Positions 1 through 30,902 of a DNA stretch of 32,000 nucleotides are shown in pieces. Each line of letters starts with the position of its first letter. The stretch's first letter is position 1. A model generated the notes under the pieces. It was not told the origin of the DNA and searched no databases. It saw only the letters and a list, made by a program, of their open reading frames with translations. Made by a program: the position numbers and the translations under genes. Origin of the DNA: Candidatus Methylomirabilis oxygeniifera (GTDB lineage: Bacteria; Methylomirabilota; Methylomirabilia; Methylomirabilales; Methylomirabilaceae); the NCBI GenBank assembly GCA_000091165.1, contig FP565575.1:1530001-1562000 (forward strand), written 5' to 3'.

Positions 1-3000
1 GCCGGTCCCTTTGTAGTCAGCCTTGACCTGTTGCGGGGCCAGACCATCGTTCATCGCGGGACCGACCATGGCAAGGTGTGGGTCGCGATCACAGGCAGTC
101 AGCAGGCGCTTCAACCACCCTGGCGTAACGACCACGTCACCCGACAGCAGGATCACCGGCTCGTCACCCGACGATTGGAGCAACCGGTTGAGCAGTTGTA
201 CGGCAGGTACGTCAGCGGTTCCGATCTGCCACCCATCCGGACACGATGGCTGAGGCGGTGGAGCGCATCCGTTCCCGTTGCCGGTCGAAGGACTGATCGT
301 AATAGCTAACGGCTGGTTCGTGTGTTGGACCAGCGACGACCACAACGGGGTAATTCCATGACCGTTGGGAATAATGATGGCGCTGAACGGGGTCTCTCCC
401 ATGACGGCGGGCTCGCACCGGCCGGGATCCTCGCTAATCTCCCGCCACCACCGGCCGTCACTGTCACACCGGTGGTCAGCACCGACGTCAGGAAGCGGAA
501 CCGACAACGGCGCGCTCGGAGCCGACTGTGGCGGAAAGCGATACCCTTTTTCGTATAGCGCATCGTCGGGGATACCCCACTTCGCCTTGAACAACCCCCA
601 GTTGCGCATGAGGCTCTGACGGTAGTCGATCTTCGCAGTCTTGAACGTTTGGCTCCCAGTATGGTGGACAAAGACATCCAGCGCGATCCGCGCCCGAAAA
701 CCGACCTGGAATGCCCGGATACAGAAGTCGTCATCCTCGAAGTTGCCGCTGCCGAACTGCTCATCCAGCCCCCCGATACGCGCAATGACCGCTTTGCGCG
801 CAAGCAGGCAGAAGCCGACAACCCTGGTCGCCTCTCGACTTTGCCCGTCCTGGCTTTGAGCCCACCCCGCCGCAAATACGGCAAGCCCCTCACGTCCCTG
901 ATATGAGGTCTCCCGCACCAGTTGGGGACCCGACACATAATTGGACATCGGTCCAACGATACCGACATCGGGATGCGCGTTGAAAACCCGGAGCATCCGC
1001 GTGAGCCACCCTTCGGTGACAACGGTGTCGTTGTTGAGCAACAGCACATACTCGCCTTTGGCCAGCGCAAGCCCCTGATTGTTGCCGGCGGCAAACCCTC
1101 GATTCGTCGCATTTGCAACGATCCGGACATTGTCGTGAGCGGCCATGTACTCACGCAAGTAGGCGAGCGTACCGTCGGAAGAGGCGTTGTCCACAATGAT
1201 GAGCTCATGCGGCTCTGGAGTGTGCGCCTGGATACTCGCTAGGCATGGCCGCGTATGCTCAAGCCCATTGTGGGTGAGGATGATGATCGACGTGAGGCGT
1301 GAGGCGTGAGGCGTGAGAGGCGATTCGGTCTTCGGCATTCGGCCTTCCGCCTGCTGTGTCGTTACTTCAGCCTTCAGCCTTCGGCCTTCGGCCTTCATTG
1401 TTGGCTTAAACCAGTTGATACCCCACAACTCCACCGGGCTGGGAACGTTGCCGACGCCATAGTGGACTTCGAGTTTCGCGTACAGTTTGTCCGTACTCTC
1501 CTGAACAAGCCGCGACGTCTTCGTCTCCGCCTCCGACTTGAAACTGACCTGACCTTCGTGGTGAACGAAGGTGTCGGTGGCCACAAGCAATGTATAGCCC
1601 TTCAGCCGCAATCGCCACGACAGATCAAGGTCGTCGTTTCCCAGGAACAGCTCCTCATCCAGCAGACCGACCTCATTCAACGCCCGACGTGGCAACATCA
1701 GGCAGAAACCAATAAGGAGTTTAGTCTCTACGGCGCATCCTCGATTCACCCGCGCCATCTGTTCGGCGATCTCCGCGACGGTACGGCCGTTCTTCAGTTC
1801 AGGTTTATAGAGTTGATATTTTTGCAGCCCCGCCACGTAATCTGAAACCGGTCCGACCGCTCCTACCCCTGGTCCGAAATGGCCGATTAATCGATCCACC
1901 CACCCAGGCGTCACAACGGTATCGGGGTTGAGCAAAACTACGTATTCGCCGGATGACGCGCGGATCCCTTGATTGCAGGCGGCTGAAAACCCGACATTGT
2001 TCTGGTTGAGGATCGTCGTGATCCGGCCCTGATACTCGTGCAGGATCGACCTCGTCTTATCGGTTGAGACGTTATCGATGACGATCAGGTCGGTTGCCGG
2101 CCTACTCTCCTTCAACACGCTGTCGAGACAGGCTCGGATAGTGGAAGCAGAGTTATACGTTACGATCACGATCGACGCGATTACGGGCTCACCGGTAGTC
2201 GGTCTCTCGGCAACGCCCAGAGAGGAGGGCGAGGGCGGACTATAGGCCATTACTCGTCCTGCGTCTGTTTTGACATATGTGCCATCGCGTGTGATCACGA
2301 AATCCGGTATCGCCTTATCCGACCACTTCCGGCGAAGTCGTTCGAGATTGCGCGACTCTTGCCGAACTCGCTCCGATCCGCTCTGAGATTCATAATGAAT
2401 AACTACGCTCGTTGGTTCGTAGACCAAGCGCCATCCGAGACCCTGGAGCTTCAAGCAAAAGTCCACATCCTCACGCCCATTCCAATAGTTCTCATCGAAC
2501 CCCCTAACCTGCTCAAAAGCAGTTCTTCGCACTAGGAGACATGCGGCGGTTAGCGCCTGATACGTGCGAGGTTCATTCGCCCCTGGCAGGTGCGCTATCT
2601 GTCGGTAGTAGATGTGGCCTGCGTTTAGCCCCATGGACTCCCTTTGATCATCGATAATAATGACTCCCGCATGTTGAATGGTCCCGTCAGGGTACAGCAG
2701 CTTACTGCCGACTGCCGCAACGGCTTGATCGGCATCGAGGACCGCGACAAGCGGCTCAAACCAATTCGGCTGCACCTCAGTGTCGTTATTGAGAAATAAC
2801 AAGTTCGTGCCCACGGCAGCGCCTGCACCCTGATTACACGCATGCGCAAAGCCCATATTGTCGGTGTTGACGACCGCCCGCAGTCGTCCGGCGTCCTGCT
2901 CCAGGCGTAGAAACTCGGTTGTGCCATCGGAAGAACCGTTATCGACAACGATGAGTTCGTATTGACCAGCAGGAGTATGGCGACGGACAGCCTCTAAACA

Positions 3001-6000
3001 TTGGCGGGTCAGGTCCAGGCGGTTAAAGACGGGGATGATGATGGATGTGAGATGTGGATCGAAATTCGCACATCGAGGTTCCTCCGTGTCGGGGGCCAGC
3101 GCTTTTCCGTCCACAATCGCCAAGTTGTCCGTCGCTACGGCATTGCTCGGTTCCAGCGAAAGGACTTTCCGATAAAACGCCCGTGCCTGGTCGAATCGGC
3201 CGATCTCGGCGTAGCAATTGCCGACAATGAGGAGGGTCTCCACATCATGAGGCGCGTGCCGCAATACGGTCAGGTAGCTTTCAACAGCCTCGGTATAGCG
3301 CGCACTATCAAGACACAGACGGCCTAACAGCTTCAGCGCATCGATGTCGGCGGAATTCGCCGCCAAGACGCGACGGATAGACGCCTCCGCCTCCTCGCCG
3401 CGGCCCATATGGAGATAGACAGCCGCCAGATTGAGATGGGCGGCAGGGTAATCGGGGGCCAGGACCGTAGCTTTCACGAACTCGCGGCGGGCGGCCTCCA
3501 CGTCGCCGAGTTGCAGCAGGACGTTGCCATGGGCGACGATCAGCTCGGGATCGTGCGGAGCGAGTTGCACCGCCTGACTGAGCGCCTGCGCGGCGGCAGG
3601 CGGATCACCCTGAGCGAGGTGCTGCTCGGCCTGACGGATTTGTTCGATGACGTTGGCCGATCGGACGAGACTCGTCTGGACATCGCCAGAATCGGCTGAT
3701 ACCGATTGATATCTCAATATGGTCGCCGTCTCGTACCTGGAACTGACTTCTGACCGATCATTCATTGCTCGCGCGGTATTTGGGGTCGGAGCTGATGCCT
3801 CGCACGCTCTAGACGCAGCATTGTATACCTCAAGTGTGAGGGCGGCGATCCGATCCCAATTGTATTGATCGCGTAAATGGGTCTGCAGGGCCTGCCGACG
3901 ACGGCTATCGAACGCGTGATTATGATATGCGTCCCGGACTGCTCGTCGAATCGACTCAACATCGGCCGGATTACAGTAATAGGCCGCATCCCCAAAGTAC
4001 TCCGACTCAGCGCCTCGATTGCCCATCACGACACTACACCCCGCAAGCGCAGCTTCCATACTCGCAATGCCAGCGCATTCCCACCAACTTGGCAACGCAT
4101 GCACTCGTGCCGCCGACCTCGCTGAGGCAAGCAGCTCATCATCCAGTCGTCCCACGAAATGTGTCCCTTCAGGCGCAAATCGTCGACAGAGTTCGAGATA
4201 CGATGGAAGAACCTGGTCGCCGGCCGCCACAATCGGGAGCCCGGCGTCACGAAGCGCTATCAACAACATAAGCTGATTCTTTCTGGGCTCAACTCGTCCG
4301 GTTATCAGTACGAAGTCTCGGACGCCAAATCTATTGACGAATGGTTCAGGAGAAACGACACGAGATGGAACATCCGCACCAGTTGGAACGATCGAGGATC
4401 GAGGCATCCGCGAGATCTTTTCATCAAAAGTGCTCATCAAGAGCCGTTCTTCACCGGCGCTGATGGCAATGAGATGATCCACACCCTGTAAGATCTCCCC
4501 CTGCTCCTCTTCATACGTCGCATACAACTTATTGCCGCCCTTTCGGCTCACGCCGAACAACGATAAGGTGCCGCCGGCAATTTGCCGAAGCGCCTTAGCC
4601 AGATGCTTACGACTCTTTGTCTTGGCGATGGCGCCAGGCACCGCTACTTCCCCCCAGTAGCTCTCACTTCGGTCCCAGAAAAATGGGGTGAGAATGATCG
4701 GCGCCCGTGTCGCTCGCCGCAAGGCTGCCGCTTGGTGCAGGGTCACTTCCGGGCGCAGCAAATTGAACAGGTTAATGAGATCGTAGCCGGCGGGGTTGGG
4801 GTTCAGATCACAACAGATATCCACAATGACCCCTAGTCGCTCTAAACCCTCCTTCAGGCGCAACATATGAGTCGTATCACCGCCAGGAATGGTAAACGCA
4901 TCAGGACGATTGACAAAAAGGACACGCAGCATCGATGAAGCGACACCTCCGCGATCAACGCTCCCTGGACGTTGCAAGATCGGCGCATCGCCGTCGTCAG
5001 CGCAAGGGACTGAATCCCCTCGCCTGGCATGTCGCAGATCGTCATCGGCAAGACTTGTAAATACCTGTACGCCGTATGGTTTGAAGGAGTCAGATCTTAC
5101 GGTGGAACCCTCTTGGTCCGTCATCGGTCGAGATGCAGCGCCTCCAGACGCACAAGAGGGGAGACTGTATACTCTAACCCTCTTGGTACCGGTAGCCACA
5201 CACCTTCCATCAGGTTGAGCTACTACGTCGGCAATAATTCTACCCAACCACACATGGCAGAAGATCTCATGATTGCGCTCTAGGCAGCGAAATCGCTCTG
5301 GACCGCTCTGGTACTCATAATGGATGACGACACTCTTCGGCTCGTACACTGAGAGCAGCCCACGTTCCTGAATCTTCAGACAGAGGTCGACATCTTCAAA
5401 GCTGTTCCAGTATCTCTGATCGAATCCCCCTACTTGCTCAAAGGCGGATCGGCGAACCAACAGGCAGGCACCCGTCAGCGCCTGGTAGGTACACGACTGA
5501 TTAGCCTCGCGCAGATCAGCCGGTCTCTTATAGTAGACGTGCCGCGGACAGAGTTTTCCTGTCCCCACCTGATCATCCACGATGACCATACCGGCGTGTT
5601 GTATCGTACCATCTGGAAACAGTAGCTTGCTCCCTACAATACCAACCTCAGGATCAGCCTCAAGAACAGTGACAAGCGGCTCAAACCAATTCGGCTGCAC
5701 CTCAGTGTCGTTATTGAGAAATAACAAGTTCGTGCCCACGGCAGCGCCTGCACCCTGATTACACGCATGCGCAAAGCCCATATTGTCGGTGTTGACGACC
5801 GCCCGCAGTCGTCCGGCGTCCTGCTCCAGGCGTAGAAACTCGGTTGTGCCATCGGAAGAACCGTTATCGACAACGATGAGTTCGTATTGACCAGCAGGAG
5901 TATGGCGACGGACAGCCTCTAAACATTGGCGGGTCAGGTCCAGGCGGTTAAAGACGGGGATGATGATGGATGTGAGATGTGGATCGAAATTCGCACATCG

Positions 6001-8625
6001 AGGTTCCTCCGTGTCGGGGGCCAGCGCTTTTCCGTCCACAATCGCCAAGTTGTCCGTCGCTACGGCATTGCTCGGTTCCAGCGAAAGGACTTTCCGATAA
6101 AACGCCCGTGCCTGGTCGAATCGGCCGATCTCGGCGTAGCAATTGCCGACAATGAGGAGGGTCTCCACATCATGAGGCGCGTGCCGCAATACGGTCAGGT
6201 AGCTTTCAACAGCCTCGGTATAGCGCGCACTATCAAGACACAGACGGCCTAACAGCTTCAGCGCATCGATGTCGGCGGAATTCGCCGCCAAGACGCGACG
6301 GATAGACGCCTCCGCCTCCTCGCCGCGGCCCATATGGAGATAGACAGCCGCCAGATTGAGATGGGCGGCAGGGTAATCGGGGGCCAGGACCGTAGCTTTC
6401 ACGAACTCGCGGCGGGCGGCCTCCACGTCGCCGAGTTGCAGCAGGACGTTGCCATGGGCGACGATCAGCTCGGGATCGTGCGGAGCGAGTTGCACCGCCT
6501 GACTGAGCGCCTGCGCGGCGGCAGGCGGATCACCCTGAGCGAGGTGCTGCTCGGCCTGACGGATTTGTTCGATGACGTTGGCCGGTAGAGCCTCTTTCGA
6601 CGGCATCGCCAGGATGAGAAACTGAAGGGTCTTCAACTCCAGGAGCTCATCTGCGCCGACGTTCTTAATAACGATTTTACCCGTATCAATGTTGACACTA
6701 CCGCCGTCGCACTGAATGTTCCTGCAACGAACATCCGGAGCGCTTACGACCTTGAGTACGTTATAGCCGGTTTCGCGAAAGAATCGCTTTATTTCCTCGA
6801 GGGTAAAAAAACGCAGATGGGTCACGTCCAACAGGCCAATTTTTTCATACCGCCAGCGTCCATGAGCCAACTCATTCATTACCCAGAGATTGCGGATGTT
6901 CGGAATACTGGCAATAATCTGCGCACCAGGCGCAAGAAACGGCTTGAGCCTGATCATGGCGGACCAGGGATCCACCATATGCTCCAAAACGTCGCCGAGA
7001 ATGACGGCATCTATTGAGCGTTCGGCAATACCCTCGGCGGCAAAATCGATATCCTCCATACGCTGAGCATACACCTTGTCGATGTGTTGCTCCGCGATGT
7101 GGGCCGCTGCTACGTTGAGCTCGACGCCAAGAACATACGCTTCAGGATAGACTTTCTTGATGAGAGCTCCGGTGGCTCCAGCGGCGCAGCCGATCTCTAA
7201 AACCAGGCGCGGTGGCCTAACGAACATTTCTACGAGATCCCTGCGCGGATGAGTATATTCGCTCTTCACCCCGCCCTCATCGCCTTTTGCCAGCTCCTCC
7301 CAGACATAGTCCTTGTTCGGAGATAACGTGGCATTTCGTTCGCGCTTCAGCGCCATTTCCGTCATGAGCGCGACCACGCGCTCCGTCGCCTTACCGTCCT
7401 GACCGACATTGTAATAATCCGCTTTTGCCCGCATGGCCTCCACGAGACCCTCACGAAAAGAGGCATTTTCAAGCAGTAAGCGAATCGCCGTCGAGAGCTC
7501 TGGGGGTTCCACATCCAGGATGCCGGATCCCCCGTCGAAACTCGGCCCTAACCGCAACCCCGACGTGTCGACCAGATTGATCGCAGGCACGCCTGCAAGC
7601 AGGGCCTCTAAGGACAGATTGGAATCGACTGAAATGACGATATCGGCGCTGGCGACTAAGGCTTCCGTATCTGCTGTGGCGTAGATGACCCGTTCTCTCG
7701 GTAGATGTAAATCGTCCGCAATTTGCGCCACCGTCTCCCGGCCGGCCGCTGCATTGGCAGGACGATCTTTAATGAGAAAGTTTACCGAAATCCCATCCCG
7801 AATAAGTGTGTGGCATGCGGATAAAAAGACGCGTAGCGTCCTTCTATAGACATCGGCATCAGAAATCGCGGTCAGTTTTGCGTCCCAGGTCGCACCGAAC
7901 ACGACTAACGGCAATGCTCGATGTAAGCCGTACTTGGTGAATAGACCGCACTTAATCTGCTCGCGCTGTTCCCGCAAAGCGGGATAGATATCCCATGCGG
8001 GATTTCCCGTTACTCGGATACGCTCTTCCGACACCCCGGCGTCCAGAAGGCTCTCGGCGCCTCGCTTGCCGAAAACAGCCACCACATCGCTGAGCACTGC
8101 CGAATGCACCGTGTAGGCCTTCACGAGCGCAGTCGCATGAGAGAGATGCAGCGTGGGAATGCGATGCGTTTTGGCCCACTCTACCGCACATCTGGGAACG
8201 GACGTCCAGTCCTCGTTGACAACTACCAGCTCAATGAAATACTCACGCCATGCTTTCTCTAGAGCCTCAAGAACGATCATTCCACGCTGAACGCACGGCA
8301 ACAGCGCATCGGTGATGAGCGGCTTCACACGTTCCGCATCCAGGTGAAGGGTTTCGGCAAAAGATACCCAGCCCTGCTCCGACATAGCGCGGGAAGCATC
8401 ACGATTCACTGCTGCCGCTTTCTGCCCGATGGTGTGGATTTCACCAGCGTCAAGCAATTCCTCCAAGGCGACGACGGTGCCTCCAACCGCTGACACCAGG
8501 CGGCGTAATTCTACGGTGATAGCCCCACGCAGGGTCAAGACGATCCGAGGTCGCGTAGCGAGATACTGCTCCAACACGGGAACGGACTTCGGCCACAAAA
8601 GGGAGACCAGCGCGGTTTGCTTCAT
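1..8625 (-). CDS. Giant multidomain glycosyltransferase/methyltransferase fusion protein (at least 2875 aa; 3' end runs off the window). Domain order: GT-B-like, SAM-MTase, TPR, GT2, GT4, TPR, GT2, GT2, GT2, GT2-like.
   Basis: ATG 8625-8623 overlaps the TGA of the upstream gene (ATGA) and is preceded by an in-frame TGA at 8640-8638. I translated the minus frame whose codons start at coordinates divisible by 3 and found no stop down to base 1 (last codon = bases 3-1). The ORF track lists no complete minus-strand ORF in that frame anywhere in 1-8625, as expected if the frame never closes inside the window. Motifs read: RIRVTGNPAWD (GT-B/2-epimerase-like, ~8010); VLEIGCAAGATG..DAVILGDVLEH (class I SAM MTase, ~7200-6980); TPR-like repeats (6584-~6010 and 3659-~3085); IIIPVFNRLD..VVDNGSSDGT..FLNNDT (GT2, ~5960 and ~3035); MLRVLFVNRPD..GRVEPRKNQ (GT4, 4932-~3800); IVIVTYNS..VIDNVSTD..LLNPDT (GT2, ~2180); IIILTHNG..IVDNASSDGT..LLNNDT (GT2, ~1290); VILLSGDVVVTPGWL (GT2-like, ~400-1). 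Confidence 0.8.
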   Translation of the reverse strand, partial: MKQTALVSLLWPKSVPVLEQYLATRPRIVLTLRGAITVELRRLVSAVGGTVVALEELLDAGEIHTIGQKAAAVNRDASRAMSEQGWVSFAETLHLDAERVKPLITDALLPCVQRGMIVLEALEKAWREYFIELVVVNEDWTSVPRCAVEWAKTHRIPTLHLSHATALVKAYTVHSAVLSDVVAVFGKRGAESLLDAGVSEERIRVTGNPAWDIYPALREQREQIKCGLFTKYGLHRALPLVVFGATWDAKLTAISDADVYRRTLRVFLSACHTLIRDGISVNFLIKDRPANAAAGRETVAQIADDLHLPRERVIYATADTEALVASADIVISVDSNLSLEALLAGVPAINLVDTSGLRLGPSFDGGSGILDVEPPELSTAIRLLLENASFREGLVEAMRAKADYYNVGQDGKATERVVALMTEMALKRERNATLSPNKDYVWEELAKGDEGGVKSEYTHPRRDLVEMFVRPPRLVLEIGCAAGATGALIKKVYPEAYVLGVELNVAAAHIAEQHIDKVYAQRMEDIDFAAEGIAERSIDAVILGDVLEHMVDPWSAMIRLKPFLAPGAQIIASIPNIRNLWVMNELAHGRWRYEKIGLLDVTHLRFFTLEEIKRFFRETGYNVLKVVSAPDVRCRNIQCDGGSVNIDTGKIVIKNVGADELLELKTLQFLILAMPSKEALPANVIEQIRQAEQHLAQGDPPAAAQALSQAVQLAPHDPELIVAHGNVLLQLGDVEAARREFVKATVLAPDYPAAHLNLAAVYLHMGRGEEAEASIRRVLAANSADIDALKLLGRLCLDSARYTEAVESYLTVLRHAPHDVETLLIVGNCYAEIGRFDQARAFYRKVLSLEPSNAVATDNLAIVDGKALAPDTEEPRCANFDPHLTSIIIPVFNRLDLTRQCLEAVRRHTPAGQYELIVVDNGSSDGTTEFLRLEQDAGRLRAVVNTDNMGFAHACNQGAGAAVGTNLLFLNNDTEVQPNWFEPLVTVLEADPEVGIVGSKLLFPDGTIQHAGMVIVDDQVGTGKLCPRHVYYKRPADLREANQSCTYQALTGACLLVRRSAFEQVGGFDQRYWNSFEDVDLCLKIQERGLLSVYEPKSVVIHYEYQSGPERFRCLERNHEIFCHVWLGRIIADVVAQPDGRCVATGTKRVRVYSLPSCASGGAASRPMTDQEGSTVRSDSFKPYGVQVFTSLADDDLRHARRGDSVPCADDGDAPILQRPGSVDRGGVASSMLRVLFVNRPDAFTIPGGDTTHMLRLKEGLERLGVIVDICCDLNPNPAGYDLINLFNLLRPEVTLHQAAALRRATRAPIILTPFFWDRSESYWGEVAVPGAIAKTKSRKHLAKALRQIAGGTLSLFGVSRKGGNKLYATYEEEQGEILQGVDHLIAISAGEERLLMSTFDEKISRMPRSSIVPTGADVPSRVVSPEPFVNRFGVRDFVLITGRVEPRKNQLMLLIALRDAGLPIVAAGDQVLPSYLELCRRFAPEGTHFVGRLDDELLASARSAARVHALPSWWECAGIASMEAALAGCSVVMGNRGAESEYFGDAAYYCNPADVESIRRAVRDAYHNHAFDSRRRQALQTHLRDQYNWDRIAALTLEVYNAASRACEASAPTPNTARAMNDRSEVSSRYETATILRYQSVSADSGDVQTSLVRSANVIEQIRQAEQHLAQGDPPAAAQALSQAVQLAPHDPELIVAHGNVLLQLGDVEAARREFVKATVLAPDYPAAHLNLAAVYLHMGRGEEAEASIRRVLAANSADIDALKLLGRLCLDSARYTEAVESYLTVLRHAPHDVETLLIVGNCYAEIGRFDQARAFYRKVLSLEPSNAVATDNLAIVDGKALAPDTEEPRCANFDPHLTSIIIPVFNRLDLTRQCLEAVRRHTPAGQYELIVVDNGSSDGTTEFLRLEQDAGRLRAVVNTDNMGFAHACNQGAGAAVGTNLLFLNNDTEVQPNWFEPLVAVLDADQAVAAVGSKLLYPDGTIQHAGVIIIDDQRESMGLNAGHIYYRQIAHLPGANEPRTYQALTAACLLVRRTAFEQVRGFDENYWNGREDVDFCLKLQGLGWRLVYEPTSVVIHYESQSGSERVRQESRNLERLRRKWSDKAIPDFVITRDGTYVKTDAGRVMAYSPPSPSSLGVAERPTTGEPVIASIVIVTYNSASTIRACLDSVLKESRPATDLIVIDNVSTDKTRSILHEYQGRITTILNQNNVGFSAACNQGIRASSGEYVVLLNPDTVVTPGWVDRLIGHFGPGVGAVGPVSDYVAGLQKYQLYKPELKNGRTVAEIAEQMARVNRGCAVETKLLIGFCLMLPRRALNEVGLLDEELFLGNDDLDLSWRLRLKGYTLLVATDTFVHHEGQVSFKSEAETKTSRLVQESTDKLYAKLEVHYGVGNVPSPVELWGINWFKPTMKAEGRRLKAEVTTQQAEGRMPKTESPLTPHASRLTSIIILTHNGLEHTRPCLASIQAHTPEPHELIIVDNASSDGTLAYLREYMAAHDNVRIVANATNRGFAAGNNQGLALAKGEYVLLLNNDTVVTEGWLTRMLRVFNAHPDVGIVGPMSNYVSGPQLVRETSYQGREGLAVFAAGWAQSQDGQSREATRVVGFCLLARKAVIARIGGLDEQFGSGNFEDDDFCIRAFQVGFRARIALDVFVHHTGSQTFKTAKIDYRQSLMRNWGLFKAKWGIPDDALYEKGYRFPPQSAPSAPLSVPLPDVGADHRCDSDGRWWREISEDPGRCEPAVMGETPFSAIIIPNGHGITPLWSSLVQHTNQPLAITISPSTGNGNGCAPPPQPSCPDGWQIGTADVPAVQLLNRLLQSSGDEPVILLSGDVVVTPGWLKRLLTACDRDPHLAMVGPAMNDGLAPQQVKADYKGTG
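1292..1319. repeat. Heptanucleotide tandem repeat: GTGAGGC x3 plus GTGAGAG
   Basis: Read directly: cgtgaggcgtgaggcgtgaggcgtgagagg. It lies in the linker between two GT2 domains of the giant ORF (minus strand encodes ..PLTPHASRLTS..). Confidence 0.85.
1365..1397. repeat. Heptanucleotide tandem repeat: CTTCAGC x2, CTTCGGC x2, then partial CTTCA
   Basis: Read directly: cttcagccttcagccttcggccttcggccttca. Same interdomain linker (minus strand encodes ..MKAEGRRLKAEV..). Confidence 0.85.
2746..3659. repeat. Copy A of a 914-bp perfect direct repeat inside the giant ORF (partner 5671..6584; offset 2925 bp = 975 codons)
   Basis: Boundary comparison gives mismatches at 2745 vs 5670 and at 3660 vs 6585. 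Lines between the boundaries read identical. ORF-track peptides 3001..3327 = 5926..6252 and 3023..3217 = 5948..6142 are letter-identical. Confidence 0.9.
5671..6584. repeat. Copy B of the 914-bp perfect direct repeat (encodes the TPR block plus the first ~100 aa of a GT2 domain)
   Basis: Same evidence as copy A. Flanking sequence to the left of each copy (2330-2745 vs 5255-5670) is still homologous at protein level but diverged (AVLDADQAVAAVGSKLLYPDGTIQHAG vs TVLEADPEVGIVGSKLLFPDGTIQHAG). Confidence 0.9.
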
Positions 8626-14726: not shown

Positions 14727-15725
14727 TCAAAGGTGCTCGATCTTGTTGCGATACCGATCAATCCAGTCCCGCAGGGTGTCGATAGTCATCCACTCCGAGT
14801 TGTTGTCGGAACGATAACTGAAATCCGGATCGACCTTCTTACCGCCATTGTTACGAGCCGGATCCCAACTCCAGTTATGTATCGCAGGCAAAATCTTGAA
14901 GTGGTCCGCATACGCATAGGTATACGGCGCATCTTCCATGCCGATCATCTGCTCGTGAACCTTTTCGCCTGGGCGAATGCCAACGATTTTCAGGTGCGCA
15001 TCCGGGGCAACGGCGCGCGCAATATCGGTAAGCTTCATCGATGGGATTCTCTTGACGTAGATCTCGCCTCCCACCATATTGTTAAAGGCATGCCATACTA
15101 GCTCCACACCTTGTTCGAGGGTAATCATAAAGCGGGTCATCCGTTCATCGGTAATCGGCAACACACCCGTATGGGCCACGCTCATGAGAAATGGAATAAC
15201 CGAGCCGCGCGATCCCATGACATTGCCGTATCGTACGATGGCAAATCGGGTCTCACTGGCGCCCGAATAAGAGTTGCCGGCAATAAATAGCTTATCGGAG
15301 GCTAGCTTGGTCGCACCATAGAGATTGATCGGGTTGCTGGCCTTATCGGTGGACAGTGCGACCACCCGCTTTACGCGTCGGTCAATGCCGGCATCGACGA
15401 GGTTCATTGCCCCCATGACGTTCGTCTTCACACACTCGAAAGGATTATATTCGGCCGTTGGTACGATCTTGGTTGCGGCGGCATGCACGACATAGTCGAT
15501 GCCATCCAGGGCACGGACGAGTCGCTCTTTGTCCCGCACATCACCGATGAAGAATCGTACCCGCTCGTCATCGCCATAGAGCTTAGCCATCTCCCACTGT
15601 TTCATCTCGTCACGCGAAAAAATGACCAGGCGCCGTGGGTTGTATTTCGCAAGGGTCATGGGCACAAAGGTGTGGCCGAAGGAACCTGTGCCGCCACTGA
15701 TGAGGATGGAAGAGTTTGTCAGCAT
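14727..15725 (-). CDS. pseB: UDP-N-acetylglucosamine 4,6-dehydratase (inverting)
   Basis: ILISGGTGSFGHTF Rossmann motif, FFIGDVRDKERL, and YGATKLASDKLF (YxxxK). It is the first gene of the pse operon. Confidence 0.92.
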   Translation of the reverse strand: MLTNSSILISGGTGSFGHTFVPMTLAKYNPRRLVIFSRDEMKQWEMAKLYGDDERVRFFIGDVRDKERLVRALDGIDYVVHAAATKIVPTAEYNPFECVKTNVMGAMNLVDAGIDRRVKRVVALSTDKASNPINLYGATKLASDKLFIAGNSYSGASETRFAIVRYGNVMGSRGSVIPFLMSVAHTGVLPITDERMTRFMITLEQGVELVWHAFNNMVGGEIYVKRIPSMKLTDIARAVAPDAHLKIVGIRPGEKVHEQMIGMEDAPYTYAYADHFKILPAIHNWSWDPARNNGGKKVDPDFSYRSDNNSEWMTIDTLRDWIDRYRNKIEHL

Positions 15726-15864
15726 GGAAATCCGACTCTCATAATTACCGCTCTATTGGCTTTCGTATGGGTAAGGATCGAACCCTCCGCGGTAGAAAAT
15801 GGCTGCTTTCATTATGGCCCTTGCTCACTGCTTGGATTCGATCAGTGACGTCATCTGGAGTAAC

Positions 15865-15879
15865 GCAAGCCGTGTGCCA
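15865..15879 (-). promoter_or_regulatory. Sigma54 (RpoN) -24/-12 promoter upstream of pseB
   Basis: The minus strand reads TGGCAC-ACGGC-TTGC, a full match to the TGGCAC-N5-TTGC consensus. It sits ~140 nt upstream of the pseB ATG (15725). The 15-mer is identical to 29830..29844. Confidence 0.75.
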
Positions 15880-15982
15880 TCAGGAATGGCCAGAGTATCC
15901 CACGTAACTAGTTGAAAACACGATGACAGATCCTTCTCCTGGAGATCAGGCGTCAGAAATTGGCCGATAAGATACCGGCGGG

Positions 15983-16011
15983 TGGGGAAAATTTTGCCGC
16001 TGGCATCAAGC
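15983..16011. promoter_or_regulatory. Conserved upstream motif shared with the flgF promoter region (candidate enhancer/bending site)
   Basis: The plus strand reads TGGGGAAAATTTTGCCGC-TGGCATCAAGC here and TGGGGAAAAATTTGCCGC-AGTACTCAAGC at 29916..29944. The first 18 nt match at 17 of 18 positions. Confidence 0.5.
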
Positions 16012-16027
16012 AGCCCCTGAGTTACTG

Positions 16028-16064
16028 ATTCGCGTTCGATGCGCTACAGGCGTATCGAACGAAT
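16028..16064. promoter_or_regulatory. Imperfect inverted repeat ~150-185 bp upstream of the pse sigma54 promoter (candidate activator site)
   Basis: attcgcgttcgatgcg - ctacagg - cgtatcgaacgaat. Confidence 0.3.
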
Positions 16065-16241
16065 GGCGAATGGCGCCGACAATGAGACGGTTTAAGAAAT
16101 ACAACGCCTGGAATGGAAGGCTTACGGTAGGAAAGCGTTTGAAGTGGAAAGTAACTTTAGGCTTGGATTAAGGATCCTCGACCCTCGTGCAAGGGGTAGA
16201 AGCCGTAATTAGGATCACTTGGATCTTTTCAGGAGCCATAA

Positions 16242-16372
16242 GAGCCTGTCCTGCAAACCCCTTGTTGTGGTTCAACAGGCTCACCACGAACGGAAAAGGT
16301 CAATGTTTTCAATATACACATCGTTCACCATGAGCTTGTCGAAGGTTATATGAGGGTTTTCAGGACAGGCTC
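16242..16372. repeat. MITE-like palindromic element, copy 1 (~131 bp, ~19-bp terminal inverted repeats)
   Basis: The left end is GAGCCTGTCCTGCAAACCC. The reverse complement of the right end is GAGCCTGTCCTGAAAACCC. The interior also folds back on itself. It is homologous to the reverse complement of 18786..18915. ATAA flanks both ends. Confidence 0.7.
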
Positions 16373-16446
16373 ATAAGCCACCGCAATCTTGAAGGAAAGG
16401 GCCCGTACGCTACACTGCTTCGTAACTTAACGAAAACTCAGACCTT

Positions 16447-17166
16447 TCACGGTACCCCCGTTCGCCGCAGCTCGAGATTGAAGGTGTCTCGCACATGGGC
16501 CTCGGTGAAATCGGCCTCGTCGAGATGGGCCTCGCGGAAATCGGCATCGTGAGAAGAGGCCTTCTGAAGCTTCGCGCCGCGTAGATCGCTCAGGCTAAGA
16601 TTGGCCCCTCGTAGGGTCGCCCTGCTGAGATCTGTGCCCCTCAGGGAAGCTCCGTAGAGCCGAGCATCACTGAGATCGGCTAGCTGAAGGATGGCTTCGT
16701 CCAGATCGGCCTTCAATAGATCAGCATTTCGAAGATTCGCGGATCTGATCATCGCTCGCTGCATCTTTGCTTCACGAAGATCGGCTTTTTCAAGATTCGC
16801 CTTACTCAGATTTGCTGCGTTGAGATCGGCTCGAACTAGAGAGGCCTCATTGAGATCGGCGGAACGAAGGTCGGTTTCGCGAAGATTAGTCTCCTGTAAC
16901 GATGCATGCCGCAGGCTAACACCTCGAAGATCAGCGCCGTATAGATTGGCCTTGTCAAGAACAGCTTCGCTGAAATTGAGCGAGGTAAGCTTCAGAAATC
17001 TCAGATTCATTCCCGTAAAATTTCTTGTCGTGGCCAGAATGACCTTGACTTGCTCCAGGGTCAATGGCTGATCGCGCTGATGCTCAGAATAGTTAACGGG
17101 TGCGCCCACACATGCCGAAAGGCTCAACAGCACTGCGACAAGCGCTAGAACTGTCCAGAGTTTCAT
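16447..17166 (-). CDS. Pentapeptide-repeat lipoprotein
   Basis: Signal peptide with lipobox MKLWTVLALVAVLLSLSAC. About 30 consecutive A(D/N)LXX pentapeptides follow (ANLYGADLRGVSLRHASLQETNLRETDLRSADLNEASL...). AGGAGGAG lies 10 nt upstream of the ATG. Confidence 0.9.
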   Translation of the reverse strand: MKLWTVLALVAVLLSLSACVGAPVNYSEHQRDQPLTLEQVKVILATTRNFTGMNLRFLKLTSLNFSEAVLDKANLYGADLRGVSLRHASLQETNLRETDLRSADLNEASLVRADLNAANLSKANLEKADLREAKMQRAMIRSANLRNADLLKADLDEAILQLADLSDARLYGASLRGTDLSRATLRGANLSLSDLRGAKLQKASSHDADFREAHLDEADFTEAHVRDTFNLELRRTGVP

Positions 17167-17411
17167 TGCGATCGTCTCCTCCTGGATTTTTTATTGGTTT
17201 CGCCTTACCCGATGGGACGCTCATTAATCATGTGCGAGACGACGAAGTGGTTGAGTTGCCCTATCTCGACACATATCCCAGAATTACCCCGTCTTGATTA
17301 ACTATCGACTGATCGAGAAGCTCGCTTGAGCAAAAAATCCCGACCGGTTTTCGACAGCGATTCTTTAGCAGATGCTTCCCCATTGCCTTGGGGCCCCGTC
17401 CCGTCACTCCA

Positions 17412-17440
17412 TTGACCTGCTGGCTCGTCCCTGATACACT
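17412..17440 (+). promoter_or_regulatory. Sigma70-like promoter of Uma2 paralog 1 (TTGACC-17 nt-TACACT)
   Basis: Read directly. The promoter is duplicated together with the gene at 19106..19134. GGAAGGAG RBS at 17453-60. Confidence 0.6.
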
Positions 17441-17463
17441 ACCTTCAATCGCGGAAGGAGTTC

Positions 17464-18039
17464 ATGATGGGCACGCAGACCGTTCAGACGCGCCGTTTCA
17501 GCCGCCAGGACTACGAGCGTCTTGTGGCCGAGGGGTTTTTTCATCCGGAGGAACGACTGGAACTGGTGGACGGAGAGCTTATGATGATGACGCCACAAGG
17601 AAGCCGCCACGCGACGGCCGTCTGTTTGGCAGAAAGCGCACTCCGCTCCCTTTTCGGTGCGGGCTCCAGTGTTCGCGTGCAGTTGCCGCTTGCGTTGGAT
17701 CCGGATTCGGAACCGGAGCCGGATCTGGCTGTCGTTGTCGGTTCCCCGCGCGACTATCGGGATGCCCATCCACAGACGGCTGTCCTCATCGTTGAGGTGA
17801 CGGATACTACGCCGTCGTATGATCGGGAACGCAAGGCTCGCCTCTATGCCAAGGCCGGCATTCCGGAGTATTGGATCGTCAATCTCCTGGAGGGGTACGT
17901 AGAAATCTATCGTCATCCTGCCATCGTCAGCTCTTCAGGCGCAGCGTATCAAAGCCGTTCGGTCGCCTCTTCCTCCGATACCATCTCGCCGTTGGCGGCT
18001 CCGGAGAGATCCCTTATGGTCGCCGATCTGCTCCCGTAA
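17464..18039 (+). CDS. Uma2-family (DUF820) PD-(D/E)xK-type endonuclease, paralog 1
   Basis: ELVDGELMMMTPQGSRH..PDLAVV..AVLIVEVTDTT..DRERKARLYAKAGIPEYWIV is the typical Uma2 motif order. Confidence 0.85.
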   Translation: MMGTQTVQTRRFSRQDYERLVAEGFFHPEERLELVDGELMMMTPQGSRHATAVCLAESALRSLFGAGSSVRVQLPLALDPDSEPEPDLAVVVGSPRDYRDAHPQTAVLIVEVTDTTPSYDRERKARLYAKAGIPEYWIVNLLEGYVEIYRHPAIVSSSGAAYQSRSVASSSDTISPLAAPERSLMVADLLP

Positions 18040-18232
18040 CGCAATCCTGGCTTAGCTGGTGATGCAGATTATCTCTCGGCCACCCGTTTGAGTGCCTCCG
18101 CGACGCTCACTACCCACGTGCCATCCGGCAGCGTGTACGCGACGCTGGTACGGCACACGATCATTTTCTGGCCGACTCATCCCTTTTCGACGGTCACCCA
18201 ACTGGCTTGCTCTGTCTCGTCTTGCATGGCAA

Positions 18233-18261
18233 TTGCAACGGAAATGGTTCGCTGTTATACT
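18233..18261 (+). promoter_or_regulatory. Sigma70-like promoter (TTGCAA-17 nt-TATACT) upstream of the small two-gene cassette
   Basis: Read directly; ~75 nt upstream of ATG 18337. Confidence 0.55.
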
Positions 18262-18336
18262 AAGTGACAAGAGGAAGATGCGCATCGCGCGCTTCCAAGA
18301 GATTGTCCTACGACCTTGCCAATCGAGGAGGCGGGT

Positions 18337-18567
18337 ATGACCTTAGAAACAACGACTTACGACTCGCCAATTGATGCCCTAGTGGCCTTGGTTCAGGTCC
18401 TCGCCAGCTACGAGCAGCGTTATCGGATGACCTCCGCACAATTCTTTGCCACGTACAAAGAGGGGAAGCTAGAGGATTCGGCGGACTTTGTCGAGTGGAC
18501 CGGAGATTACCAGCATTATCTTGGTCTCTTTCAGGAACTCAAGGATCGATTGAAAACTGCCGCATGA
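18337..18567 (+). CDS. Small hypothetical protein (76 aa), antitoxin-like partner of the downstream ORF
   Basis: ATG 18337 lies 5 nt after GAGGAGG. Sequence: MTLETTTYDSPIDALVALVQVLASYEQRYRMTSAQFFATYKEGKLEDSADFVEWTGDYQHY. The stop overlaps the next ATG (ATGA). The family assignment is from memory only. Confidence 0.45.
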   Translation: MTLETTTYDSPIDALVALVQVLASYEQRYRMTSAQFFATYKEGKLEDSADFVEWTGDYQHYLGLFQELKDRLKTAA

Positions 18568-18740
18568 GTCCCCTCCATGACTACCTTGCGCAGGTCCAGC
18601 AAGCCATCAGCGCCCTCCCCTGGATCCAGATTGAGGAGTATTGGGCACAACTTCTTACGGCTACCCGAGCAAACCTCCGCATCAGGCTCCAGTTAGCAGA
18701 CAACTCCCTCCTGGTCCACGGTAAACAGAGGCCCGTATAG
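18564..18740 (+). pseudogene. Truncated toxin-like ORF (58 codons); resembles only the N-terminal half of DUF6516/TumE-like proteins
   Basis: MSPLHDYLAQVQQAISALPWIQIEEYWAQLLTATRANLRIRLQLADNSLLVHGKQRPV* stops 45 nt before MITE-like copy 2. The full-length family, as I recall it, is ~110-130 aa. Confidence 0.3.
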
Positions 18741-18785
18741 TCAGCTTCCGTGAATGAGAACAGGGGATCGAAGCAGATGTGGGCG

Positions 18786-18915
18786 GAGCCTGTCTTACAA
18801 ACCCTCATGTACCCTTCGACAGGCTCAGGGTGAAGGGAATATGTATCGAACACATTGACCGTTTCCGTTCGTACCGAGCATGTCGAAGCATGAACGGGGG
18901 TTTGTCGGACAGGCC
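18786..18915. repeat. MITE-like palindromic element, copy 2 (inverted relative to copy 1)
   Basis: Its reverse complement aligns with 16242..16372 along the full length at roughly 75-80% identity by eye. The conserved core is acgaacggaaaNggtcaatgtNttc and the termini are conserved. Confidence 0.7.
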
Positions 18916-19105
18916 GATAATGTAATTCCTTAAGGTCGCAGAGCCGTCCGGCTGGACCCCGACATCATTTCTCGCCAGATACTTCCACATTGCCTACTCA
19001 GAAACTGGCTAAGTTTCTGCCACCTACGGGTCAGCGAACGCTGGATGGGATACTCGCAATGACCACACGGCGGCCGGCAAACGAAATTAGGACAGCACCG
19101 GGTCA

Positions 19106-19134
19106 TTGACCTGCTCGATCGGCCCTGATACACT
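19106..19134 (+). promoter_or_regulatory. Sigma70-like promoter of Uma2 paralog 2 (TTGACC-17 nt-TACACT)
   Basis: The hexamers and spacing are the same as at 17412..17440. AGGAGGAG RBS at 19147-54. Confidence 0.6.
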
Positions 19135-19160
19135 ACCTTCAGTCGCAGGAGGAGTCCACG

Positions 19161-19733
19161 ATGGGCACACAGACTGTTCAGACACGTCGTTTCAGCCGCC
19201 AGGACTATGAGCGGCTTGTGGCGGAAGGGTTTTTTCATCCGGAAGAACGACTGGAGCTGGTGGACGGAGAGCTCGTTATGATGACGCCGCAAGGAAGCCG
19301 GCACGCAACAGCCGTTCGCCTGACGGAAGATGCGCTGCGCGCTGTCTTCGGTATCGGCTTCGATGTCCGCGTGCAGTTGCCGCTGGCGTTGGATCCGGAC
19401 TCAGAACCGGAGCCGGATCTGGCCGTTGTTGTCGGTTCCCCGCGCGACTATCGGGATGCCCATCCCCAGACAGCGGTCCTCATCGTTGAGGTGACGGATA
19501 CCACGCGGTCGTACGATCGGGAGCGCAAGGCCCGCCTCTATGCCAGGGCCGGCATTCCGGAGTATTGGATCGTCAATCTCCTGGAGGGGTACGTAGAAAT
19601 CTATCGTCATCCTGCCATTGTCAGCTCTTCAGACGCAGCGTATCAAAGCCGTTCTATCGCCTCTTCCTCCGACACCATCTCGCCGGTGGCGGCTCCAGAG
19701 AGGTCCCTCGCGGTCGCTGATCTGCTCCCGTGA
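19161..19733 (+). CDS. Uma2-family endonuclease, paralog 2 (~92% aa identity to paralog 1)
   Basis: There are 15 aa differences out of 190 when the track peptides are compared. Nine of them fall in one 16-aa patch. Confidence 0.85.
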   Translation: MGTQTVQTRRFSRQDYERLVAEGFFHPEERLELVDGELVMMTPQGSRHATAVRLTEDALRAVFGIGFDVRVQLPLALDPDSEPEPDLAVVVGSPRDYRDAHPQTAVLIVEVTDTTRSYDRERKARLYARAGIPEYWIVNLLEGYVEIYRHPAIVSSSDAAYQSRSIASSSDTISPVAAPERSLAVADLLP

Positions 19734-19762
19734 CACCATCCAATCAGATAGTTGCGCGTTAC

Positions 19763-19791
19763 TTGATTCCACTCCATGCCCATGCTAGACT
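19763..19791 (+). promoter_or_regulatory. Sigma70-like promoter of Uma2 paralog 3 (TTGATT-17 nt-TAGACT)
   Basis: Read directly. GGAGGGAG RBS at 19801-08, ATG at 19813. Confidence 0.45.
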
Positions 19792-19812
19792 TTCGCCTGT
19801 AGGAGGGAGACC

Positions 19813-20376
19813 ATGACCGTTCAACTCTGCAGACGACTGTTCACTGTCGATGAGTACGAACGAATGGCTGCGACCGGCATTTTCGGTGAAGACGATCGCA
19901 TCGAGCTGATTGATGGAGAGATCGTGACCATGACGCCCATCGGAAGCCGACACGCCGGGACCGTGAATCGTCTGCTGAATCTTTTTATGCCCTTGCAAGC
20001 TGAGCGAACAGCACAACTGAGCATTCAGAATCCGATCCGTCTCAGCGAGCATTCAGAACCTCAACCTGACCTGGCTCTCCTCAGACCGCGGTCTGACTTC
20101 TATGCGTCGTCGCACCCCGGACCCCGGGATGTGTTCCTGCTTGTAGAAGTCGCTGAAACCTCGACAGATTTCGATCGGCAAATTACGTTGCCCTTGTATG
20201 CGAAGGCCGGGATCCCTGAGGTCTGGTTGGTCGATCTGGCAACGGAACAGATCATGGCCTTCAGCGATCCTATGCCTACCGGATATCGGCGATCTGCGAC
20301 TTACCCAAGGGATGCTGCATTGGCCCCTCTCGCGTTTCCTTCCACCCTGCTCCCAGCCGACGCGATCCTGGCTTAG
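19813..20376 (+). CDS. Uma2-family endonuclease, paralog 3 (diverged)
   Basis: ELIDGEIVTMTPIGSRH..PDLALL..VFLLVEVAETS..DRQITLPLYAKAGIPEVWLVD. Confidence 0.85.
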   Translation: MTVQLCRRLFTVDEYERMAATGIFGEDDRIELIDGEIVTMTPIGSRHAGTVNRLLNLFMPLQAERTAQLSIQNPIRLSEHSEPQPDLALLRPRSDFYASSHPGPRDVFLLVEVAETSTDFDRQITLPLYAKAGIPEVWLVDLATEQIMAFSDPMPTGYRRSATYPRDAALAPLAFPSTLLPADAILA

Positions 20377-20395
20377 GGCAGATTCCCTAGAGCGG

Positions 20396-20647
20396 TTACG
20401 GGATGTTCTGTTTCGGAAAGAGGGCGCGGAGCTTTTCGCTCAGCGCCCCTGTATGCGAGAGACCGAGTGTGCTGGCCTGAAGGTTCTGCTCTCGAATCCG
20501 TTCATAGATCTCGCCTCGATGGATTGTCACCTCCTGGGGCGCCGAGATACCGAGGCGGACCTGCGAACCGCGGACCTCTATGACGTTAATGACGATCGAT
20601 TCTCCGATCGTAATCTTCTCGCCGAGCTTCCTCGTCAGGATCAACAT
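20396..20647 (-). CDS. csrA: Carbon storage regulator CsrA (flagellar, FliW-partnered type by context)
   Basis: [51 protein letters not shown] is a canonical CsrA sequence. Confidence 0.95.
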
Positions 20648-29829: not shown

Positions 29830-29844
29830 GCAAGCCGTGTGCCA
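29830..29844 (-). promoter_or_regulatory. Sigma54 (RpoN) -24/-12 promoter upstream of flgF
   Basis: The minus strand reads TGGCAC-ACGGC-TTGC, identical to 15865..15879. It lies ~55 nt upstream of the flgF ATG. Confidence 0.78.
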
Positions 29845-29879: not shown

Positions 29880-29893
29880 AAAAAAGGGGGGGG
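29880..29893. repeat. Homopolymeric tract A6G8 (minus strand C8T6) between the upstream motif and the flgF sigma54 promoter
   Basis: Read directly: aaaaaagggggggg. It lies immediately 3' of the REC-GGDEF stop codon (29895-97). Confidence 0.9.
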
Positions 29894-29894
29894 T

Positions 29895-30902
29895 TTAGGA
29901 CAGGACGGCTGGAGATGGGGAAAAATTTGCCGCAGTACTCAAGCCATCGGTATGGGCGGAGTCCACCAGAAGCCGCCGATCGACAAGATAGACACTACCC
30001 GGTTTGGCCTTCGCGGCAGTCTTCAGTTCGGCGGCGCGGGCAACGAGCTGACCCACATGTTCAAAGCCCCGCCCCTCGCTCGGAACGACGGCAATAGATA
30101 GCGTCATAAGCGGAAAGCGGCAGAGGCGATTCTGGCGGTCCTTCAGGAGCAGAGATCCCTGACGACGATCAGTCTCATCATAGAGGGAAGGCGCGATCAG
30201 ATCGAAATTTGCGATGATCTCCCGACAGGCCGATTCGATCTGCGGCATCGGCAGGATCACAACAAAGTCATCCCCTCCGATATGTCCGACAAAACCGGAT
30301 CCCGACCCCAGGTTCACAACAGCGTTCAAGACGATTCGCGCCGTCATCCTGAGTGCGTCATCGCCCCTGGCAAAGCCGTACCGATCGTTGTACGCCTTGA
30401 ACGAGTCAATGTCGAGATAGGCCAACGCAAAGGCCTGATCGGCGTCAAGCCGCCGTTGAATTTCTTGAAGAATGGTGTTGTTTCCGGGTAGGCGGGTCAG
30501 CGGGTTGGCATCAAGTTCGAGATTTGATCGCAGGAGGCAGAGACGACTCCTGATGCACACCTCTTGCGGGCTGACGGGCGCCGCAACAAAATCGCTAAGC
30601 TGAAGCTCCGCCCACGTATCGACCCGCTCGTCGGCCCCGGTCTGGAGCAGCAGGATCATCGGAAGCTGGCGGAACACCGGATCGGCTCGGATGAGCCTCG
30701 CGATCCTCTCTCCCTCCGAGGCGGACAGGTCATCGCTCAGGATCATGAGATCCGGGGGATCGGCATACATCTCGTACAGCGCCTGGCAAGGATTGCTTGG
30801 CGTCTTCACCTCGAAGCCTTCCCGCATCAGACGCTCGACCGCCTCATGAGGCAGAGAGGGATCGACTCGAATGAACAGAATCTTTGCGCTGTGGTCCGTC
30901 AT
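29895..30902 (-). CDS. Response-regulator receiver + GGDEF-family domain protein with atypical motifs (GGDDF)
   Basis: The REC-like N-terminus reads KILFIRVDPS..PDLMILSDDLSASEG..PMILLLQTG..DFVAAPV. The GGDEF domain reads FALAYLDIDSFKAYNDRYGFARGDDAL..GHIGGDDFVVILP. Confidence 0.8.
   Translation of the reverse strand: MTDHSAKILFIRVDPSLPHEAVERLMREGFEVKTPSNPCQALYEMYADPPDLMILSDDLSASEGERIARLIRADPVFRQLPMILLLQTGADERVDTWAELQLSDFVAAPVSPQEVCIRSRLCLLRSNLELDANPLTRLPGNNTILQEIQRRLDADQAFALAYLDIDSFKAYNDRYGFARGDDALRMTARIVLNAVVNLGSGSGFVGHIGGDDFVVILPMPQIESACREIIANFDLIAPSLYDETDRRQGSLLLKDRQNRLCRFPLMTLSIAVVPSEGRGFEHVGQLVARAAELKTAAKAKPGSVYLVDRRLLVDSAHTDGLSTAANFSPSPAVLS
29916..29944. promoter_or_regulatory. Second copy of the conserved upstream motif (see 15983..16011)
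   Basis: TGGGGAAAAATTTGCCGC-AGTACTCAAGC, starting 72 bp upstream of the TGGCAC element. In the pse copy that distance is 104 bp, a difference of 32 bp (about 3 helical turns). Confidence 0.5.

Follow-up and report, generated by a model that had tools for sequence, protein, structure and literature searches.

Introduction

Flagellar genes arranged in sigma-54-dependent tiers with upstream enhancers are textbook knowledge. NtrC-class activators often use two or more adjacent sites, and some flagellar activators, such as FlgR of the Campylobacterota, need no DNA binding. In C. jejuni, Cj1293/pseB is said to have a sigma-54 promoter, a finding attributed to Goon et al. in 2003. The sites themselves have been described in the Proteobacteria: the ftr consensus of FlbD in Caulobacter reads CCCGGCAxxxxxTGCCGGG, that of DVU1063 in D. 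vulgaris GGCAxxxxTGCC (PMC3333781). Two-tier sigma-54 hierarchies are those of Vibrio, in which FlrA stands above FlrBC, and of Pseudomonas, in which FleQ stands above FleSR (PMC3120886, PMC4481668, PMC7064773). As for flagellin glycosylation, the flaB-jhp0106 arrangement of H. pylori makes only the transferase RpoN-dependent, via flaB, and leaves the pse biosynthesis genes unaffected (PMC5368276).

The window, by which we mean the whole stretch of 32,000 nt analysed here, covers genome positions 1530001-1562000 of Candidatus Methylomirabilis oxygeniifera, on a single contig of 2,752,854 bp with 58.6% G+C. The control system that we propose for it resembles FlbD/ftr of Caulobacter crescentus and DVU1063 of Desulfovibrio vulgaris (PMC3333781) in being a sigma-54 flagellar regulon with a short dyad, imperfect here, of GGCA half-sites. 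As in the FlbD/ftr system, which serves class III/IV promoters in Caulobacter, the core lies about 100 bp from the promoter and would have help of the IHF type. Unlike that system, it has one site per promoter and an invariant A/T-tract centre, and it belongs to the Methylomirabilota, not to the Proteobacteria. Mechanistically it holds no surprise and is an ordinary kind of gene control. What is new is a defined enhancer code in the Methylomirabilota, the resemblance of this code to the FlbD/ftr site, a single tier that would hold motAB along with a complete pse pathway, and the swapping of a gene cassette behind a conserved head. A precise and testable cis-regulatory code, consisting of a 13-bp enhancer and a sigma-54 promoter at four operons, is available for the flagellar regulon of a methanotroph from an uncultivated phylum without genetics.

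The gene cluster and its sigma-54 promoters

The minus strand of the window carries rod and ring genes, an accessory islet and a pseudaminic acid (pse) operon that runs towards a giant glycosyltransferase gene (Table 1). The pse genes abut or overlap, and the operon would extend from pseB into the giant gene. Downstream of the latter lie genes for GT2-TPR proteins and signalling proteins, followed by flagellin, fliS and fliD. Genes outside the window were called with a crude codon-bias caller, by which intergenic DNA makes up about 14% of the genome.

Table 1. Features of the control regions and neighbouring genes. Coordinates are those of the window unless marked as genome or G006; distance is from the core centre to the TGG of the -24 element.
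Feature	Coordinates	Strand	Distance (bp)	Remarks
giant glycosyltransferase ORF	1-8625 and beyond	-		behind the pse genes
pseC, pseF, pseG-like, formyltransferase, pseI, methyltransferase, then giant glycosyltransferase	downstream of pseB	-		Pfam
pseB	14727..15725	-		first gene of the operon; ATG at 15725; Pfam
predicted transcription start	15853	-		12 nt past the C of the -12 GC; standard sigma-54 geometry
sigma-54 (-24/-12) promoter TGGCACACGGCTTGC of the pse operon	15865..15879	-		perfect consensus, intergenic, co-oriented
IHF-like block TTTCAACTAGTTA	15905..15917	-		agrees with WATCAANNNNTTR at 8/9 specified positions; lies between the UAS and the promoter
UAS core GGCAAAATTTTCC of pseB	15986..15998		113	exact GGCAAAWTTTTCC site; conserved block with flanks 15983-16000
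imperfect inverted repeat/hairpin	16028..16064			arms 16033-16044 and 16050-16061, 92% complementary, -17.6 kcal/mol, z -2.9
accessory islet	between flagellar genes and pse operon			in the window
flgF-flgG-flgA-flgH-flgI-flgJ-...-flgN-flgK-flgL	in the window	-		flgF-G-A-H-I-J confirmed by Pfam
sigma-54 promoter TGGCACACGGCTTGC of the flgF-flgG-flgA-flgH-flgI-flgJ operon	29830..29844	-		perfect; conserved in G006, G009, G024 and G170
UAS core GGCAAATTTTTCC of flgF	29919..29931		81 (80-81)	within the last codons of a REC-GGDEF gene
UAS core of flgB			80	
UAS core TGGCACGGGACCTGC of the response-regulator/motA/motB operon			173	
activator 1	genome 1505769-1507154			directly upstream of flgB; with PAS histidine kinase
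activator 2	genome 1511290-1512753			kinase at genome 1512753-1513808
candidate tier-1 enhancer block	genome 1509190-1509225 and 1490960-1491000			outside the window; in G006, C2:56560-56600 and about 74350-74390

The initial annotation had reported the same 15-mer, TGGCACACGGCTTGC, at 15865 and 29830, the former about 140 nt before pseB, and the distances proved correct: from the 3' end of the promoter to the ATG there are 140 nt for pseB and 53 nt for flgF. These are the only two perfect matches to TGGCAC-N5-TTGC in the window, where 0.03 were expected, and both agree at 15/15 specified positions. The N5 spacer (ACGGC) is identical at pseB and flgF, whereas the promoters of the corresponding glycan-gene heads in the relatives differ there. 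In the whole genome (2.75 Mb) there are 12 perfect sites, all except one intergenic and co-oriented with a nearby gene. Among the genes behind them are flgB, pseB, flgF, pilT and a cheY-like gene that heads a kinase/activator operon; a pmoA/amoA-like gene lies 314 nt downstream of another. The genome also encodes the sigma factor itself, for whose gene the initial annotation had proposed to look: a Sigma54_DBD match of 206 bits at 1006681-1007154, within an open frame 480 aa long, marks rpoN. There are in addition 17 full-length sigma-54 activators. Judged from its sequence, the promoter before pseB is a genuine sigma-54 promoter, and what the initial annotation observed is far beyond chance.

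With transcription starting at the predicted position, the pse transcript would have a 5' UTR of about 128 nt (15726-15853). A sigma-70/terminator scan gave no sigma-70-like promoter before pseB on the minus strand, and a sigma-28 pattern search returned nothing convincing ahead of the flagellin gene. The leader had no match in an Rfam scan of 15500-20500, which yielded no credible family; neither the 5' UTR nor the 720-bp gap therefore holds a riboswitch or a leader RNA.

A putative 13-bp enhancer core upstream of four flagellar promoters

A second block had been noticed 104 bp from the promoter at pseB and 72 bp from it at flgF, and these distances hold: the 18-mer TGGGGAAAA(T/A)TTTGCCGC occupies 15983-16000 and 29916-29933. 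A mismatch-tolerant search shrinks it to a 13-bp core, GGCAAAWTTTTCC. The TCAAGC extension (GCTTGA/TCAAGC) that had been included in the motif does flank both copies here and is not kept in the relatives; the core is the 13-mer alone. Exactly four copies of GGCAAAWTTTTCC exist in the 2.75 Mb genome, where a third-order Markov model predicts 0.08, and all four stand upstream of sigma-54 promoters within the flagellar/chemotaxis supercluster. The zones 60-200 bp upstream of the 107 sigma-54-like sites of the genome amount to 0.54% of its length and hold 4/4 cores, which gives a chance P of about 9e-10. The motif is thus strongly enriched, as had been anticipated, before other flagellar sigma-54 promoters, namely those of flgB and of the response-regulator/motAB operon, and it is conserved in relatives.

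Relative to transcription the core is found either way round, as expected of an enhancer. The copies at flgB and flgF lie within coding sequence, the former coinciding with the last codons of the activator gene at 1505769-1507154. As a dyad, GGCAAAATTTTCCC, it scores 12/14 in the present genome and is imperfect (GGCA.../...TTCC). Even with 3 mismatches permitted, there is one copy per promoter. A fifth near-match, GGAAAATTTTTCC (genome 2741295), was judged to be due to chance: the nearest 300 bp hold no sigma-54 site, and it is close to a small HTH-like ORF and the gene of an EF-hand protein.

The long spacing of 173 bp at the response-regulator/motAB operon results from a REP-like hairpin that is inserted between enhancer and promoter. 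This hairpin, GCGGCAATCTCACGGTACTTG...ACGGTGAGATTGC, is seen at genome 1565760-1565830, 3.8 kb past the end of the window, and at 1509300, and it has 13 copies in the genome when 3 or fewer mismatches are allowed.

Conservation of the module in relatives

The flagellar cluster is carried by only a few genomes of the genus. Four of them besides the present one (G003, G006, G009 and G017) keep core and promoter at flgB and/or flgF with a spacing of 80 bp. A motif search in five relatives, combined with promoter and ORF analysis, recovered the flgB module in G003, G006 and G009 and the flgF module in G006 and G009, each time with 80 bp; for G003 and G017 we saw the flgB module and no flgF module. 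In the flgF control region of G006 and G009, CGGCAAATTTTTCC and TGGCAC-N5-TTGCT are invariant while the flanks are about 70% identical. The module before the motA operon is spaced by 104 bp in G006 and by 180 bp in G009, and in G024, a member of another family, flgF is preceded by a module with 113 bp.

A composite pattern, UAS-N65-95-promoter, was then run on 201 genomes of the phylum. Besides the present genome it matched G006, G009, G017 (at flgB), G170 and G158; the match in G170, again from another family, precedes flgF, and that in G158 precedes a methyltransferase gene. The reversed control pattern gave 0 matches across the 201 genomes.

The suggestion that the 32-bp difference in spacing between pseB and flgF keeps the motif on the same face of the helix did not hold up across these modules. 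Relative to the 80-bp modules, the offsets are out of phase: +22 bp (G170) corresponds to 2.1 turns, +24 bp (G006 motA) to 2.3, +33/34 bp (glycan heads and G024) to 3.1-3.2, and +93 and +100 bp (motA) to 8.9 and 9.5.

An orthologous head in front of different sugar cassettes

Contig C2 of G006 is collinear with the whole supercluster. The interval from csrA to the giant glycosyltransferase gene, occupied here by the islet and the pse operon, contains in G006 genes for an RfbF-like nucleotidyltransferase, a DegT enzyme, an epimerase/dehydratase, two radical-SAM/SPASM proteins, a GT1 and an FkbM methyltransferase, followed by the giant glycosyltransferase. The G006 cassette is preceded by GGCAAAATTTGCC, 114 bp and the promoter TGGCACATAGCTTGC. 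In G009, GGCAAAATTTGCC, 114 bp and the promoter TGGCATGGTGCTTGC stand directly before the orthologue of the giant glycosyltransferase (2515 aa). In both heads GGCAAAATTTGCC is a perfect dyad. Neither G009 nor G024 has a pseB gene, and in G006 there is only a 39% paralogue at another place.

A DNA search with the pseB upstream region in 30 relatives matched only a multi-copy MITE-like element (16237-16377) and not the promoter, whose orthology was traced through the motif instead. BLASTN of G006 against the window recovered only 30 bp around the UAS. When the heads of the three species are aligned, only three blocks are conserved: the UAS, the IHF-like block in the middle and the promoter. The middle block agrees at 8/9 positions in G006 (TGTCAATGAGTTA) and at 7/9 in G009 (TTTTAATGAGTTG). 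The genome has three genes of the HU/IHF family (Bac_DNA_binding), counted without distinction between IHF and HU, and a product of this kind may bend the DNA at the block.

Since the same head precedes another sugar cassette, or none, in the relatives, the pse operon, placed behind a conserved head, is a cassette specific to this lineage, and its insertion behind a pre-existing flagellar enhancer-promoter is supported by this comparison of sequences. We consider it somewhat more likely than not that the head serves as a fixed regulatory 'socket' before the giant flagellin glycosyltransferase gene, with nucleotide-sugar cassettes being exchanged among Methylomirabilis species (pseudaminic acid here, CDP-hexose/radical-SAM in G006, none in G009) while one FlbD-like activator locks their timing to rod and ring assembly. 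If this is true, the chemistry of the flagellar glycan diversifies and its timing stays tied to the rod and the ring. The locus would then exemplify the replacement of a glycan cassette behind a conserved promoter.

The proposal of the initial annotation that the rod/ring tier also takes in glycan synthesis gains support from the fact that the same head precedes glycosylation genes in two relatives despite their differing sugar genes. By this assignment the pse operon and the giant glycosyltransferase belong to the middle flagellar tier. The Campylobacterota are similar in that flagellin glycosylation is co-transcribed or co-regulated with middle flagellar genes via sigma-54. There, however, FlgR acts without an enhancer, whereas here the whole pse pathway and the transferases would lie behind an enhancer-dependent promoter.

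Proposed mode of control and candidate activators

Taking the motifs, their statistics, conservation and synteny together with the presence of rpoN and activators, we think it likely that the stretch 15853-16000 is a complete sigma-54 head, with a single UAS, an IHF-like bending block and a consensus promoter, and that it is shared with a flagellar regulon. Sigma-54 RNA polymerase would wait in the closed state at TGGCAC-N5-TTGC until an activator of the NtrC type, phosphorylated and bound at the UAS, reaches it by looping of the DNA, aided by the bend, and opens the promoter using ATP. The same UAS precedes the operons of flgB (rod/MS-ring), flgF (rod/P- and L-ring) and the response regulator with motAB, so that one activator would switch on the genes for the basal body, the motor and flagellin glycosylation together, the pse cassette lying after the conserved head and before the gene of the giant flagellin glycosyltransferase. 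To our knowledge, this organism has not been reported as motile, and the regulon may therefore be rarely expressed.

Activator genes had been named as something to look for, and NtrC-type activators with histidine kinases are indeed present in the flagellar cluster, as two pairs of a kinase and a REC-AAA-HTH_8 protein. Activator 1 is the top scorer among the 17 with the FlbD model NF050807 (about 419-421 bits, the next 363), and at 419 bits it falls far below the NCBI cut-off of 750 bits for an FlbD equivalog. Its receiver has, by sequence, a canonical DD...D pocket. FlbD, in contrast, has an atypical receiver and FliX as its partner, whereas the activator here combines a canonical phospho-acceptor receiver with a cognate PAS kinase. 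A score so far under the cut-off and a phospho-acceptor unlike that of FlbD make the assignment a weak one. The core on its side reads GGCA-N5-T(T/G)CC and agrees with 7/8 core bases of ftr (TTCC for TGCC), and with 8/8 at the glycan-head site of G006 and G009, which would indicate an FlbD/ftr-like recognition code beyond the Proteobacteria. The most likely activator would be the FlbD-like response regulator upstream of flgB with its PAS kinase, and we propose with moderate confidence, within the overall model, that it acts at the UAS.

The same module could be bound by another activator, either the second one of the cluster or some further member of the 17. The second cluster activator has the same full REC-AAA-HTH_8 architecture as the first, and the similarity of the first to FlbD lies below any curated threshold. 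Against such a substitution, the first activator is the most FlbD-like protein of the genome and the UAS resembles FlbD-type sites. Further evidence comes from the activator's own operon, the cheY-like/kinase/activator operon, which like the fliM operon has a sigma-54 promoter without the GGCAAAWTTTTCC UAS. Both operons bear instead another block about 200 bp upstream, TTTTTTCCA...CAAATTT (also given as TTTTTTCCAnCCG..CAAATTT), which is kept in G006 and fits a separate tier-1 regulator. On this balance we regard control by a different activator as unlikely, if worth serious thought. An activator operon that has a sigma-54 promoter and lacks this UAS points to control in two tiers, as with FlrA>FlrBC or FleQ>FleSR. 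The likeness would lie in a kinase/activator pair which owes its own expression to a sigma-54 promoter and in turn switches on the sigma-54 promoters of rod, ring and hook-associated operons. The differences are that the putative top regulator here would be a kinase-coupled response regulator and not of the FleQ/FlrA type, that motAB and the glycosylation genes share the tier of the rod genes, and that the sites are unrelated to the FleQ box.

An architectural role of the A4T4 motif, as an intrinsic bend or as a site of the Fis/IHF/HU type, with the activator working from solution or from some other site, seems improbable to us. A4T4 tracts are intrinsically bent, and by our own comparison the motif loosely fits a Fis site, with its outer G...C and AT-rich centre; activators of the FlgR type that act without DNA binding would provide a precedent. 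The G/C flanks (GGC...CC), however, are as conserved as the A/T centre, and the motif lies 80-173 bp upstream, not between an enhancer and the promoter, while at the glycan promoter the position for bending is already held by the separate IHF-like block. Both cluster activators, moreover, keep their HTH_8 domains, and the confinement of the motif to four flagellar promoters genome-wide argues for a specific regulator.

On the plus strand (15983-15997 and 29916-29930), the enhancer resembles a weak sigma-54 site, TGGGGAAAATTTTGC, a likeness that is probably coincidental. With TGG, TTGC and a GG-N10-GC spacing that is exact, it matches 7/10 consensus positions, and it could be taken for a divergent or tandem promoter or for a sigma-54 decoy. 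Read as a promoter, it would flip its orientation, being divergent at pseB and flgF and tandem at flgB and motA; its flgB and flgF copies would fall inside coding sequence, and the CAC of the -24 element is replaced in all copies. The perfect dyad GGCAAAATTTGCC in the glycan heads of G006 and G009 fits the site of a dimeric protein, and we hold this explanation to be very improbable. Least credible of all is that the shared motifs are due to chance or are functionless relics of a local duplication, as the identical ACGGC spacer and similar flanks (GCTTGA...GCGGCAAA) at pseB and flgF could suggest: against expected counts of 0.03 for the promoter in the window and 0.08 for the core, the exact core elements persist at the level of genus, order and class while the flanks have diverged, the mark of a phylogenetic footprint and not of a recent copy, by which this idea is effectively refuted.

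Further elements near the control regions

The imperfect inverted repeat at 16028-16064, which had been noted upstream of the shared block, does exist; it is unique in the genome, is not kept in G006 and lies outside the conserved module, of which it is probably not a part. It lacks a T-run and is thus not a canonical terminator; it may be a hairpin at the end of the transcript of the upstream islet, or due to chance.

The MITE-like stretch at 16237-16377 is unrelated to the pseB promoter. About 135 bp long and bounded by terminal inverted repeats, the element is also found at 18786-18914; the present genome has several copies, and 11 genomes of the genus or more have many. The accessory islet (16447-20376) is missing in G006 (C2:19001-19500), where the gap from csrA to the enhancer is about 500 bp, which is consistent with an insertion in the present genome.

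Between the flgF enhancer and its promoter, a C8T6 (A6G8) homopolymer occupies 29880-29893. At the aligned position G006 has CGCCCCC-TATCT and G009 has CGTTTCC-TTTCT, so that a conserved role in phase variation is unlikely. A second, weaker module is found within the sugar cassette of G006 (locus L045, C2:30908-31090), where GGCATATTTTTCC, 159 bp and TGGCGTGGCGCTTGC precede an ORF for an FkbM-type methyltransferase.
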